DNA from: Gallionella sp.
GTDB taxonomy: Bacteria; Pseudomonadota; Gammaproteobacteria; Burkholderiales; Gallionellaceae
Assembly (NCBI GenBank): GCA_029850565.1
Contig: JARCRR010000039.1
Span: 1-39,290 of the forward strand
Direction of reading: 5' to 3'
Length of the DNA stretch: 39,290 nt
The position numbers and the translations under genes were made by a program. Each line of letters opens with the position of its first letter. The stretch's first letter is position 1. The notes beneath the pieces are model-generated. The model did no database searches. It was not told the origin of the DNA and saw nothing but the letters and a program-made list of their open reading frames with translations. Shown piece after piece: positions 3,770 to 10,199 of the stretch.

Positions 3770-4099
3770 CTACCAACTATCGTAATCGGTCAAGTTAATC
3801 GACTCACCGGTGATGGACTCCGTCACTGTGCACGCCATCCCTATTCCCGTGGGGGTGAAGGTGAATGAATAGCCGACACCTATCGCGCCGTAATAGGGCA
3901 GCTTCACTGGGTAATGGAAGCCCCAACCGTTTTGCTGGGCATGCTCAAATTGAATGGCGGCAGCACGTTGCTCAACACCGATAGCCCACTCATCAAATTG
4001 CTTGATTTGCTCTTCCGTTAGCTCGAACTTCTCACCGAACTGCATAGGCTCACGCAGGTCAAACTTAAATGGCGGAGTGTTGTTTTCTGATTGACTCAT
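3770..4099 (-). CDS. Hypothetical protein (109 aa)
   Basis: ATG at 4099 overlaps the upstream stop (ATGA), suggesting translational coupling; C-terminal YYGAIG..YSFTFTPTGIG...LTDYDSW. Confidence 0.7.
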   Translation of the reverse strand: MSQSENNTPPFKFDLREPMQFGEKFELTEEQIKQFDEWAIGVEQRAAAIQFEHAQQNGWGFHYPVKLPYYGAIGVGYSFTFTPTGIGMACTVTESITGESINLTDYDSW

Positions 4100-5142
4100 A
4101 TCTCGACTACCCCCATAGATAACACTTGGATAAAGCAAAAATCTTCTTCGCGCATATATTCTGGGGTGCTCGTCACAATATGAAAGCTCGCGTCACTAGC
4201 CCAAAATGGCTTGTCGTTGCGCAATATCTTTGATGGCTCCTCTAGTGCAAGCAATACACCCCGTTTCATTTGCTCGACCTTCTCTACATTGCCGATGATG
4301 TGAAAGATCGCTCCCGAGGCGCGTTGCCCATCACATTCTATCCAGCGACTCGATTCACCAAGCGCATCTTCAATCGCTGCTTTCGGATGTTCAAACTCTG
4401 AATAATTACAGCCAACCATGCACACACCTGATGTGGCTATTGCATCACCGATCTGGACGTAACAGTCTTTTCGGGTTGCCATCTTGGAAAACAAGCAAAG
4501 CGCCATAGTCGATTGGTAAAACATCCACGACCAATCTTGCTCCTCGCCACTCCTACTCCAAAAACCTTCATCTGGAATAGAGCAATGACAAATCGCCGCC
4601 ATTCTTTCAATGACAGCTTGGTTTGCCGCGCTGGATGCTGGGTTGCAATGCCAAACTTTTGCATCTTCTACAGCCTCACGGATATATGGCGTACCAATAA
4701 CAGCGACTGACATCACACCAGCCTCATTGGCGATATTGGCGATTCCTTCCCCCGCAACAAAGGCCATCGGGTTATCCAAAGTAACAACGAGCAATAAGCA
4801 ATCGCAACCATGGATGAATCGATTGATTTCCGGTTCTGCCTCTTTGAATGCTTTGATAGTTTCATCCTGATTATTTAACGCCTGCTCACAGGCTTTCCAA
4901 CCATCCATAACCGGGCCAGACCTGCTGCGACCGTCTTCCTCCGCATACATTTCAAGCGCCCCATCTGCATTCAGATAGAGAATGTCCTTGTTATTCCAAT
5001 TCACAATTGGCGAGTCTTGTTCATGTGCGCATTTCAAACCCGCCAAATAGTGCCCACTGGCTTCGCCCACTAGAATCATTCGCACTCTAGGCAGAGTCGA
5101 TTGATTAAAGCTTCCATGTTTCGAAATATCATTGAGTGGCAT
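4096..5142 (-). CDS. Divergent FtsZ/tubulin-fold protein lacking the GTP-binding signature (pseudo-GTPase)
   Basis: EAEPEINRFIHGCDCLLLVVTLDNPMAFVAGEGIANIANEAGVMSVAVIGTPY aligns by eye with FtsZ EDRDALRAALEGADMVFIAAGMGGGTGTGAAPVVAEVAKDLGILTVAVVTKPF. The C-terminal GVCMVG...KAAIEDAL...ASGAIFHIIG...IQVLSMGV resembles the FtsZ C-domain. Start is 5142, or 5193 which has a GGGGGAG RBS. Confidence 0.65.
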   Translation of the reverse strand: MPLNDISKHGSFNQSTLPRVRMILVGEASGHYLAGLKCAHEQDSPIVNWNNKDILYLNADGALEMYAEEDGRSRSGPVMDGWKACEQALNNQDETIKAFKEAEPEINRFIHGCDCLLLVVTLDNPMAFVAGEGIANIANEAGVMSVAVIGTPYIREAVEDAKVWHCNPASSAANQAVIERMAAICHCSIPDEGFWSRSGEEQDWSWMFYQSTMALCLFSKMATRKDCYVQIGDAIATSGVCMVGCNYSEFEHPKAAIEDALGESSRWIECDGQRASGAIFHIIGNVEKVEQMKRGVLLALEEPSKILRNDKPFWASDASFHIVTSTPEYMREEDFCFIQVLSMGVVEI

Positions 5143-5144
5143 GG

Positions 5145-5795
5145 TCACGATTTCCACTGTGAAATGAAGGGGCAGTCGTTTTGTTCTTGCCATAGTTGCT
5201 CCCCCATTTCTAATCGCGAGATTAGGCGAGCACTTGCCTTGCCGATCCAATCATTCAGCGCAATGTATGCATCTTCCATGGTTGCTTGCCCCCCAAGAAC
5301 TTCGATTAGCTTGTCATTGCAAAACTCGATGCATGATGCCTCCGAGGACAGATTGCCAACTGCCACTCTCGCCTGAAGAGGACGTTCGCCTTCAAACTCA
5401 AATGGCATCACTGCAAGCACGATCACTTTTGCACCAGCATTCAGCGCGAGTTGCGCAATAACCGGGGTGGCTCCACCGCCCGTTCCTCCTCCCATCCCTG
5501 CGCAAATAATGACAACGTCTGCATCGCCAACAGCCAACTTGATACTGCCTCGATCTGCTTCGGCCGCAAGCCTTCCAAGCTCCGCATCACCCTCGCACCC
5601 GTTACCGCTCACGATGGCTCGACCAATACGCAGCTTGGTTTGTAAATCGTTATTGATTCTATCGAGGGCATCATCAGTATTGATGCAGACGTAATCGAAA
5701 TCGTGCTCATCTTGCCTGTACAAATATTGAGCGATGTTTGATCCGCAGCGGCCAACACCGACAAATGAGACCTTCATGGATTTGCTATTTTTCAT
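5145..5795 (-). CDS. Truncated FtsZ-like protein, N-terminal GTPase domain only
   Basis: VGVGRCGSN, INTD, AGMGGGTGGGATPVIA (tubulin signature), MPFEFEG and NDKL. Ends after helix H7 with no NxDFAD T7 loop, C-domain or C-terminal core peptide. Confidence 0.88.
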   Translation of the reverse strand: MKNSKSMKVSFVGVGRCGSNIAQYLYRQDEHDFDYVCINTDDALDRINNDLQTKLRIGRAIVSGNGCEGDAELGRLAAEADRGSIKLAVGDADVVIICAGMGGGTGGGATPVIAQLALNAGAKVIVLAVMPFEFEGERPLQARVAVGNLSSEASCIEFCNDKLIEVLGGQATMEDAYIALNDWIGKASARLISRLEMGEQLWQEQNDCPFISQWKS

Positions 5796-8631: not shown

Positions 8632-8637
8632 ATAGCC

Positions 8638-10140
8638 TCAGAATTGAAAGTCGTTGCGACCAGCGAGAAATTGCCACAATCTCACCATCGCAAATGTATC
8701 CAGCCCGCAATAGGCTAGCAGTTGTTGTTCGATCTCGTCCTTACGCACCGCTGTTGTGTCGGGATGAATCGCTTCCAGATAGGCTTCCATCGCCATGCCA
8801 CCATTCTGCACACCTTCCAACGCTTCGTAGCTCAGGTCTGGAGCTATGGCAGGGAGCACTGCCTTGATGCTCCAACTGCCTTGCTGGCTTGGGTGGTAGT
8901 AATTGGCTTTGGTGATGGGATGCAGATCGACTAGGCGATCTTTGATTGCCAACAAATCAGGGGCGAGTTTGCGAAATCGTAATGCAAGTTCGTAGATGCG
9001 TGCCCCTTCGAAGCTTGCGTTATAAACATAGATAGGGCCTGTGCTTCCGCAGACCGCGATCAACCCTTCGGCAAAATATTTGGATGGATCGTTACCGGAA
9101 AGGTCAAGGAAGGCTTTGGCATCGAGTTTTCCTGTTCTGCCCAAACGATGAATGCTGAACTGGAATGGAATTTGTTGATAAGGGCTCGTGCCCTTCCAGA
9201 TTGGTACGGCGAATTGAATGGTCTCGAAGTCCAAGAAGTACGCAGGTAGCTTGTATGCCTTGAGTGCTTCCGCAGAACTTTCCGCATCAAAATAGATTTC
9301 GGCGGACAAGGTGTGCGATTTAACACGTTGTTGAAGCTCGTTCAGCAGTTCATCTGGCGTATCGCGCATATCCAGCGAGGGGTTGGCGGCGACAAGCGCT
9401 TTGAGTGCATTGGCGCGAATGCTTGGCAACCAGTGAACAGGGTATTCCGCTTGAGGCTCCTGAGATTGACAGTAGGCAAAAAAACCGCAGGCAAAAGGCG
9501 AGGAACACTGTTCACCCGTTCCAATTTTCGGTTCGGCTTTCTTTTCAACCGTTTTATGCGCTGTTTCAATCCACTCGCTCACCACATCTTCTCGCCCAAA
9601 AGCATCTTCCGTGAGGTCGCATTCCTTGAGCAGGCCGCTATAGTCGTCATTACCGGGATAAATCCAATCGCTATCTATATGAGCCAAAGCGATAGAGGCC
9701 AACGGCACACCTGCATTACGGGCGATGAAAGATTGGATGGCCGCATCGTCACGGTGATAGTCCTTAACACTGGTGGACGATTTAACTTCGACCATGCGCC
9801 ATACGCGCTTACCGCCACGCTTGATTGGCAACATCACATCCGCAAAAGCCAACGCACCTTCGATGGCAAACCCTGCTTCAAATATGGGTTGGGAGGCACT
9901 TAACAATTCCGCGCTGCGCTTGAACACTTCTCCAAAACCATCGCGCTGCGCATTGAGTAGTACGCCTTTCCCAGCAGGGTCATATATCTGATGAGCAACG
10001 TCGCCCACGGTATTGCCGACATTAAAACTGGCTTGTGTCGCCGCCGAGTCTTCCCGCAGCTCTGGGCGATGCACCTCCAGCCAAAGGCGCTTAGGGCACT
10101 GGCGGAAGGCGATTAGCTTGGATTTTGAAAGGTTGCGCAT
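8638..10140 (-). CDS. DUF2779-type protein: Cas4/RecB-like nuclease plus RNase H-like (DEDD) domain
   Basis: LSKS...QCPKRLWL, AD...VEVKSST and Cys cluster CSSPFACGFFAYC; C-terminal FLDFET, PYQQIPFQFS, YNASFE, GSWSIK and YCGLDT. Confidence 0.85.
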   Translation of the reverse strand: MRNLSKSKLIAFRQCPKRLWLEVHRPELREDSAATQASFNVGNTVGDVAHQIYDPAGKGVLLNAQRDGFGEVFKRSAELLSASQPIFEAGFAIEGALAFADVMLPIKRGGKRVWRMVEVKSSTSVKDYHRDDAAIQSFIARNAGVPLASIALAHIDSDWIYPGNDDYSGLLKECDLTEDAFGREDVVSEWIETAHKTVEKKAEPKIGTGEQCSSPFACGFFAYCQSQEPQAEYPVHWLPSIRANALKALVAANPSLDMRDTPDELLNELQQRVKSHTLSAEIYFDAESSAEALKAYKLPAYFLDFETIQFAVPIWKGTSPYQQIPFQFSIHRLGRTGKLDAKAFLDLSGNDPSKYFAEGLIAVCGSTGPIYVYNASFEGARIYELALRFRKLAPDLLAIKDRLVDLHPITKANYYHPSQQGSWSIKAVLPAIAPDLSYEALEGVQNGGMAMEAYLEAIHPDTTAVRKDEIEQQLLAYCGLDTFAMVRLWQFLAGRNDFQF

Positions 10141-10166
10141 GGAAGCTCCGATTTGTTCGATGGCGC

Positions 10167-10199
10167 ATTATCTCAACACTAGCGACAAATTGTGTCGCG
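10167..10199 (-). promoter_or_regulatory. Putative WYL-regulator palindrome plus extended -10 element for the DUF2779-WYL operon
   Basis: Inverted repeat GCGACA-AATTG-TGTCGC at 10182-10198 (CGAC-N7-GTCG); minus-strand TGA-GATAAT with the hexamer at 10172-10167. Confidence 0.65.

Follow-up and report, generated by a model that had tools for sequence, protein, structure and literature searches.

An inserted island of Gallionella sp. carries FtsZ-derived cargo under the likely control of a WYL-domain regulator

What are two derivatives of the division protein FtsZ doing in a compact gene block with a WYL-domain regulator and nuclease-like genes? The question is raised by a contig of 39,290 nucleotides (nt) from Gallionella sp. 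(JARCRR010000039.1, assembly GCA_029850565.1; the whole stretch is referred to here as the window), in which eight co-oriented open reading frames (ORFs) are packed on the minus strand at 3770-10140, with successive gaps of 6, 35, 2, 89, -11, 2 and -4 nt. An initial annotation had described these eight genes, all of which are present, as a candidate new FtsZ-decoy module linked to nucleases, but the unit is larger: an 8.3-kb, ten-gene insertion (1977-10341) that also encloses a 5′-nucleotidase and a DUF1643 gene. As that annotation stated, no genes of the dcw (division and cell wall) cluster lie nearby (none among the 42 window proteins scanned with Pfam); the canonical ftsZ lies on contig C74, and the genes upstream of it look by eye like ftsA, ftsQ and ddl. 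The island is probably a WYL-activated stress regulon with FtsZ-derived cargo, and the association is real and non-random.

The truncated FtsZ, here FtsZ-N (216 aa; 5145-5795, minus strand), comprises the guanosine triphosphate (GTP)-binding domain through helix H7 (PF00091; Pfam Tubulin/FtsZ GTPase, E 4e-28), as first proposed. It retains the T1 loop, the NTD, GGGTGGG and PF-x-x-E motifs, the guanine-pocket asparagines (equivalents of N166 and N187) and the H6-H7 loop, and it ends ~20 residues past H7, without the T7 loop, the C-terminal domain, the docking tail or a dcw location. This end point is shared by orthologues P0052 (92% identity) and P0024 (46%). The orthologue in G248, a genome of another genus, is 46% identical and lies in the same kind of island. 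Six N-only versions stop near the end of H7; five of them keep NTD, GGGTG and PF-x-x-E, and the H6-H7 loop is kept in the window and G248 copies. Homologue searching at a cut-off of 1e-40 on the 7998 best candidates gave two clusters, a lower bound on family size. Among plasmids, the best 30 of 55 records matched FtsZ-N at 31–39% identity, and those that were annotated were ftsZ.

The second derivative, pseudo-FtsZ (348 aa; 4096-5142, minus strand), has a whole FtsZ fold with the GTP motifs replaced and no C-terminal tail. It has no Pfam or NCBIfam match, and its assignment comes from an AF2 model (predicted local distance difference test, pLDDT, 59) that matches FtsZ (Foldseek E 3e-13, template modelling score 0.55-0.6) and from hhalign against canonical FtsZ (probability 97 over 292 columns), which bear out the initial identification. 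The GGGTG signature is replaced by LDN-x-MAF, the T7 motif NxDxxD is not conserved, and the T7 aspartate is kept solely in the close clade of this protein. The family is divergent and numbers 30 representatives at E <=0.001 (17 at 1e-10), the weakest being ordinary FtsZ, and has invariant residues of its own (G26, D123, W206) and no GTP motifs. A putative twin-arginine-like leader (RRxF/L followed by a moderately hydrophobic stretch, mean hydropathy 0.16-1.37) is seen in 13 of 23 aligned rows; the window protein and its close relatives are without it and start 2 nt past the FtsZ-N stop. An alternative start at 5193 corresponds to the 365-aa database gene call. Scanning metagenome and viral contigs with patterns from the pseudo-FtsZ alignment gave no loci. 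Two arguments were rejected. Higher identity at canonical-invariant positions (0.51 vs 0.23) does not count as evidence, since a similar ratio would come from uniform decay of a foreign ftsZ, and a split enzyme, in which pseudo-FtsZ would supply the catalytic T7 aspartate to FtsZ-N, does not fit an aspartate that is not kept family-wide and genes that each occur alone (G248, G032).

The candidate regulator of both genes is a protein with helix-turn-helix (HTH), WYL and WCX regions (7675-8631, minus strand). Its WYL domain is over cut-off (PF13280, E 2e-10), PF25583 is below it, the PADLOC WYL model covers residues 15-295, and the N-terminal HTH was judged from sequence, in line with the HTH-WYL assignment made at the outset. 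Against solved structures there were five weak matches at E <=0.01, the top two (7u02 and 7tzv, E 6e-4) being DriD (PMC9186387). Four of the six DriD residues that form the pocket for single-stranded DNA (ssDNA; Y168, R176, R178, Y192, R204 and R207) are apparently kept, on a by-eye reading of the alignment with an inferred numbering map. No loci for this protein were found in viral contigs.

Related palindromes precede both sub-operons, as initially noted. Predicted site 1 (10182-10198; feature 10167-10198, minus strand) is a perfect GCGAC-N7-GTCGC with a -10 box, GATAAT, at 10167-10172, and has the top score in the genome (32.3). Predicted site 2 (6276-6292; feature 6261-6292, minus strand) has one mismatch and a -10 box, TAGCAT, at 6261-6266, inside the 89-nt gap between genes for a 262-aa protein and a HEAT-like protein. 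In both, the -10-like hexamer lies 9 nt on and points into the genes. In the island loci, 21 of 122 box orientations have such a hexamer 9 nt past the box and 28 have one 10 nt past it, a peak against 0-8 at other offsets. Both palindromes match the DriD/DdaA consensus CGAC-N7-GTCG at the -35 position; DriD sites are described as taking the place of the -35 element at a fixed distance to the -10 (PMC13004042), and site 1 is identical at 13 of 15 nt to the DdaA site before the division inhibitor gene aciT (PMC13010146). Sites scoring >=20 occur in this genome (82% complete) only on four island contigs (C39, C67, C86 and C200). Site 2 is credible because it lies in the one internal gap that the block has, in the right orientation, and at the distance to the start (59 nt) of the strong site before a HEAT paralogue on C67; homologues carry stronger boxes at the equivalent place. 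Control of the FtsZ-derived genes by the WYL regulator is therefore likely, on predicted sites with activator geometry; the link recurs elsewhere, and the induction proposed in the initial annotation stands at that strength.

The recurrence of this link was examined in 317 genomes of the family. Non-canonical FtsZ genes were found in 14, after five genomes with canonical-looking matches had been dropped (second matches in G334, frameshifted, and in G168, G178 and G181, contig-end pieces, plus the single match in G228); the search would miss forms consisting of the C-domain only. A WYL gene is present in the fetched stretches of eight of the 14, and DUF2779, found in 50 of the 317 genomes, is present in 9/14 compared with 41/303 of the others (Fisher p 3e-5, which is overstated as kin are not independent). 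FtsZ derivatives thus co-occur with WYL and nuclease genes in other genomes; the pair itself was seen only in the window and close relatives. Read from the FtsZ side, the link is strong: of 20 extra FtsZ genes, 12 have an oriented site scoring >=16 in the 300 nt upstream, as against one of 1520 ORFs of the Gallionella genome. The set of 20 includes two near-duplicate pairs and leaves out tandem copies lying downstream, one gene at a contig end and the window pseudo-FtsZ. The site matrix had been trained on DUF2779 promoters alone, of which 12 of 19 yielded a site.

A single clade of island FtsZ copies is rejected (approximately unbiased test, p=1.7e-6) in a tree of 22 rows, which omits pseudo-FtsZ and the longest branches and in which the tested group was named after a quick tree had been seen. 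The G072 copy nests with ftsZ of its own genus (99/95), copies from G194, G240, G213 and G216 nest with another genus (97/96), and those of the window and G248 form a separate pair (100/99). Since the extra copies are not one clade, ftsZ has, on these alignments and predicted sites, been recruited repeatedly behind a WYL-type promoter.

The recruited forms include whole copies, N-only and C-only versions, a triple tandem, and fusions with Mrr, nucleotidase or FtsK-gamma, in islands that also hold genes for DnaA-ATPase-only and DnaB-like proteins, RtcB, Tpt1, Sir2, Macro, GmrSD and GIY-YIG. At L070:9428-10603 (G163) an FtsZ N-domain is fused to an Mrr restriction-endonuclease domain, with no strong box upstream, and at L041:6431-7966 (G013) one is in-frame with the island 5′-nucleotidase in a DUF2779-WYL island. 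At L073:8200-11125 (G213) three tandem divergent FtsZ paralogues follow one box, with DnaA::DnaB and DnaB::FtsK-gamma fusions, Sir2, a deacetylase and HAD_SAK_2 as neighbours. A VIT-vWA protein in a DUF2779 locus (L151:4486-6780; G299) carries copies of the FtsZ docking tail and ends in DIPSFLRKQAD. Twin-arginine-like leaders are also seen on separately derived FtsZ copies (L040:8624-9451, L075:8065-9282, L079:9115-10266, L109:2648-3739, L112:11025-12104 and L043:9100-9651), two of which (L075 and L079) keep the cytoplasmic docking tail as well. RtcB, Tpt1, Sir2 and ADP-ribosylglycohydrolase (RNA-repair and NAD/ADP-ribose functions) share islands with FtsZ derivatives at L043:4987-6795 and L040:2531-8294. 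The 5′-nucleotidase at L079:8018-9094 (G240) has an extra N-terminus that resembles, by eye, the start of an FlhF-like gene in L075.

The eight genes do not form a fixed system; nuclease-like genes and the FtsZ pair come and go independently of each other. In L042 the 262-aa gene, a box, the HEAT gene and the nucleotidase occur without FtsZ genes, and L178 (G578) combines DUF2779, WYL, the 180-aa gene and DUF1643 but shows no ORF of FtsZ size in the 3.5 kb covered. From 64 places listed, 40 further DUF2779 loci (647 kb) were analysed: 17 have a WYL relative and nine the 5′-nucleotidase, a frequent last gene of such islands, and in one (L139) the distance to the G032 pseudo-FtsZ is 14 kb. A second set comprised 29 GTDB loci with WYL relatives at their centre; many are on short contigs, and some overlap the 40. 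In this set 12 have DUF2779 beside WYL and four an FtsZ derivative, one of these being G248 again. No FtsZ derivative was seen in HEAT loci L055-L058 and L113, nor was one found at the three further DUF2779 loci of the Gallionella genome itself, two of which have close WYL copies. These loci, together with a HEAT paralogue, are on its contigs C86, C200, C67 and C87 (L135, L136 and L046) and carry other cargo (by eye deacetylase-like, double AAA ATPase and integrase-like), with strong boxes on C86, C200 and C67. A 254-aa gene after HEAT on C67 appeared FtsZ-C-like by eye and was set aside, as it had no hidden Markov model support. On gene content, then, WYL/DUF2779/5′-nucleotidase islands carry swappable cargo, and the nuclease-like genes are not required partners. 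For the suggestion that nucleases generate the signal, no evidence was found.

The remaining genes of the island, all on the minus strand, fit this picture to varying degrees. The first (8638-10140) encodes, as the initial annotation had it, a DUF2779 protein (Pfam E 3e-40) with a Cas4-like nuclease domain with four cysteines and an RNase H-like exonuclease domain, an arrangement described elsewhere with its role left unknown (PMC3985635, PMC13621843). One contig from run X1, which may be the source of this DNA (depth 6.6), lacks a base of this gene at 9958, an assembly difference or a frameshifted allele. The 180-aa protein (7097-7639), swappable cargo with a 61% homologue after WYL in G578, had been tentatively called EVE/PUA-like, which was not confirmed: it has no family match, its model has a pLDDT of 46, and fold matches are restricted to the N-terminal helical part (Z <=6.4). 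For the 262-aa protein (6306-7094; GC 0.39), also swappable, with a 35% homologue before HEAT in L042, the PD-(D/E)XK-like reading keeps its sequence motif (RVD-x12-EVK), which is its basis, and gains no family match. Neither gene gave anything by tblastn against plasmids. The 143-aa HEAT/LRV-like helical protein (5785-6216), which opens the second unit, belongs to a family in 7/317 genomes; three to four of 11 homologues have weak HEAT/LRV matches, so that the helical-repeat assignment is weakly supported by relatives, but the window copy has none. The 109-aa protein (3770-4099) has no assigned role, matches phrog_26220 (unknown function; E 7e-4) and has homologues in island loci L043 and L139. 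Beyond the eight lie the 5′-nucleotidase (2800-3705; PF06189, E 1e-133; PADLOC candidate PDC-S08, E 1e-135) and the DUF1643 protein (2076-2843, start uncertain; PF07799, E 4e-6). PADLOC 2.0, run on 12 proteins with its library of 2023, found no complete described system, matching only the single-gene candidate PDC-S08, WYL and weak Cas4 models; none of its models match the FtsZ, HEAT, 180-aa or 262-aa genes.

The island is bounded by direct repeats of 43 nt (1977-2019 and 10299-10341; 41/43 nt identical), the left one being the 5′ end of a resident major facilitator superfamily (MFS) gene, which is the insertion site, and the right one a copy of that gene start. GC content is 0.49 between the repeats and 0.56 outside, and no integrase was seen inside 1977-10341. 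Of 20 loci from the genus that border this MFS gene, 14 have it directly next to grpE; two others have different inserts of 2.6-3.3 kb, one has a decayed 5′-nucleotidase at the site, and three are uninformative (too short, grpE not reached, or wrong side). A contig from run X4 connects 2005 directly to 11397. Much of the island is present in two biofilter runs, in contigs with ~2-9% of letters different that bridge the pseudo-FtsZ/FtsZ-N junction; in runs X2 and X3 the joint 6268-7685 is weak (side 30, depth 3). Three Joint Genome Institute proteins (HEAT 63%, FtsZ-N 92% and pseudo-FtsZ 87%) are each on a contig of 4947 nt, presumably the same one. An aquaporin gene at 10444-11133 lies outside the repeats, and it too is absent where MFS and grpE stand side by side (the 14 loci above), which makes it a separate insertion. 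Elsewhere the window encodes a leucine-rich repeat and Ser/Thr kinase protein of eukaryote-like architecture (28487-29827) and, at 15891-18209, LemA, a 238-aa protein without assignment and a protein matching GIDE (E3-ligase-like) in Pfam.

How might FtsZ-derived cargo act? The reading that we favour, tentatively and at a little under an even chance, is that the island is a portable division brake, activated by WYL independently of SOS, in which FtsZ-N caps host filaments. FtsZ subunits join head to tail in polar filaments. ssDNA from damage or foreign DNA would bind the WYL domain, and the dimer would switch on both promoters, thereby feeding back positively on its own expression. FtsZ-N loaded with GTP would then dock by its GTP face on the T7 face of a host FtsZ subunit; as it lacks a T7 face and a membrane tail itself, it would block further growth at that end, so that division pauses. 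Pseudo-FtsZ and the HEAT protein may be co-induced accessories; the former, its export-type leader lost in this lineage, would remain cytoplasmic. Capping finds support by analogy: residues 166-195 of E. coli FtsZ (the H6-H7 loop, 'site 1') are one of the two strongest sites of dominant-negative fragments and lower polymerisation by ~20% in vitro (PMC9245647), and the truncated paralogue FtsZ1 of Agrobacterium blocks division if overexpressed (bioRxiv 2025.09.29.679267). No SulA or LexA DNA-binding domain was over cut-off in any of five genomes (G000, G004, G306, G013 and G248; two of them single-contig), and in Acinetobacter, without LexA/SulA, a WYL activator is reported to fill this role (PMC13010146).

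Several observations weigh against the brake. Site 2, the one before the FtsZ genes, scores 14.6-14.8, by score alone within the background range (49 genome sites reach >=14, and shuffled DNA of 600 kb gave 14.8 on 14 occasions), and eight of the 20 extra FtsZ genes lack a strong site in the 300 nt before them. By eye, the WYL domain seems to have no counterparts of DriD R178 and R207. FtsZ-N is only 38% identical to host FtsZ, and overexpression of Agrobacterium FtsZ3 is without effect (bioRxiv 2025.09.29.679267). FtsZ derivatives are minority cargo, with globular ones in 0/40 DUF2779 loci and 4/29 WYL-relative loci, and they differ in kind (N-only, C-only, whole, tail-only, and Mrr or nucleotidase fusions), so that one capping mechanism is insufficient. 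Finally, export by a Tat-like leader, as on 13/23 pseudo-FtsZ rows and several near-canonical copies, would remove these proteins from the Z ring.

The defensive role that the initial annotation had raised beside division arrest would make the island an anti-phage module: the WYL domain would sense phage ssDNA, and the FtsZ derivatives would serve as decoys or guards aimed at phage inhibitors of FtsZ, or else as effectors of abortive infection together with the nucleases and nucleotidase. WYL genes are described at the head of defence hotspots (10.1101/2020.12.16.423150; PMC9122601), the 5′-nucleotidase matches PDC-S08, FtsZ-N is fused to restriction and nucleotidase domains (G163 and G013), sister islands hold GmrSD, GIY-YIG, Sir2, Macro, RtcB and Tpt1, and FtsZ copies sit on long branches. 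We nevertheless regard this role as unlikely, given a promoter geometry of the DriD activator type, which is tied to DNA-damage checkpoints, PADLOC models that miss the FtsZ, HEAT, 180-aa and 262-aa genes, and the independent assortment of nucleases and FtsZ genes.

Another reading places the work of the FtsZ folds outside the Z ring. FtsZ-N would supply a GTP-binding module to partners that handle nucleotides, as the fusion in G013 might suggest, and pseudo-FtsZ would be an envelope-stress protein, exported by Tat or targeted to the membrane, whose leader is lost here. Leaders in 13/23 rows, invariants of the family's own and a T7 aspartate not kept family-wide are all consistent with such a role, but leader-bearing near-canonical copies (L075 and L079) keep the FtsA/ZipA-docking tail DIPSFLR and the VIT-vWA protein of L151 carries copies of that tail, both of which point back to the divisome; we think it improbable. 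Least convincing, and quite unlikely in our estimate, is a capture hotspot that gathers pieces of host cell-cycle genes (ftsZ, dnaA, dnaB, ftsK-gamma and flhF-like) as passengers, the window pair being a deletion mosaic with no joint function: mosaic fusions and split copies (G072 and G215), the confinement of the pair to the window and close relatives, and the weak purifying selection roughly estimated between P0001 and P0021 (47/366 residues and, over the covering contig, 107/1393 nt different) would suit it, but reading frames are intact at 16–63% identity in 21 more distant pseudo-FtsZ rows, the window and G248 FtsZ-N are intact at 46% with the same end point, and separately recruited copies each lie directly behind an oriented promoter.

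A broader reading is a long shot, in which WYL islands repeatedly copy host cell-cycle genes (ftsZ above all, and pieces of dnaA, dnaB and ftsK-gamma) as an inducible arsenal of caps, nuclease-wired decoys and Tat-tagged FtsZ folds that could export host FtsZ or phage FtsZ inhibitors, which would give a general, unrecognised checkpoint or defence independent of LexA and SulA.

One of the closest known systems is the DriD-DidA pair of Caulobacter crescentus. DidA is presumably a small membrane protein, not derived from FtsZ. DriD is a single chromosomal regulator, whereas the regulator here sits on an insertion, comes in at least three close copies within one genome, and varies in its cargo. 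Shared with DriD-DidA are the HTH-WYL-WCX regulator, CGAC-N7-GTCG at -35, SOS-independent control and a likely effect on division (PMC9186387, PMC13004042). DdaA-AciT of Acinetobacter has the near-identical operator and, as here, a host without detectable LexA or SulA, but DdaA is reported also to control recA, ssb and uvrA, unlike the island-restricted strong sites of this 82% complete genome, and AciT is a small membrane-anchored protein, unlike the FtsZ-derived cargo (PMC13010146). FtsZ1 and FtsZ3 of Hyphomicrobiales are likewise extra, shortened ftsZ products encoded outside dcw, the former blocking division when overexpressed; they are old lineage-wide duplicates with a whole GTPase domain (~315 aa), and the preprint text mentions neither WYL nor DNA damage (bioRxiv 2025.09.29.679267). 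The extra FtsZ proteins here, in contrast, are rare, are encoded on islands, arose more than once, and either stop at H7 or are without GTP motifs. FtsZ-N would use FtsZ's own GTP face, unlike SulA and MciZ, whose folds are unrelated to FtsZ. BrxR we take to be a repressor. BrxR/CapW and the SXT hotspot-5 WYL regulators also head variable-cargo islands with nuclease-like genes (PMC9122601, PMC11662680, 10.1101/2020.12.16.423150), but CapW is described there as a repressor, whereas here the geometry of the site is like that of an activator and no named defence system of several genes occurs. SulA (PMC13010146) and MciZ capping (PMC9245647) resemble the proposed mode, in that a filament interface is blocked. 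No named system with this architecture was found in PADLOC 2.0 or the searched literature, as the initial annotation supposed. A description of FtsZ-derived genes under WYL control was likewise absent from that literature, a search that left out subscription journals and supplements (defence-screen tables may hold such genes), and no paper on WYL and DUF2779 together was found in it.

Known WYL-driven checkpoints use small unrelated inhibitors (DidA and AciT); the likely effectors here derive from FtsZ and were recruited several times. If the division brake is correct, it would explain division delay after damage in bacteria where LexA and SulA were not detected, provide natural single-interface FtsZ variants for probing filament polarity and capping, and give one class of orphan ftsZ paralogues a function.

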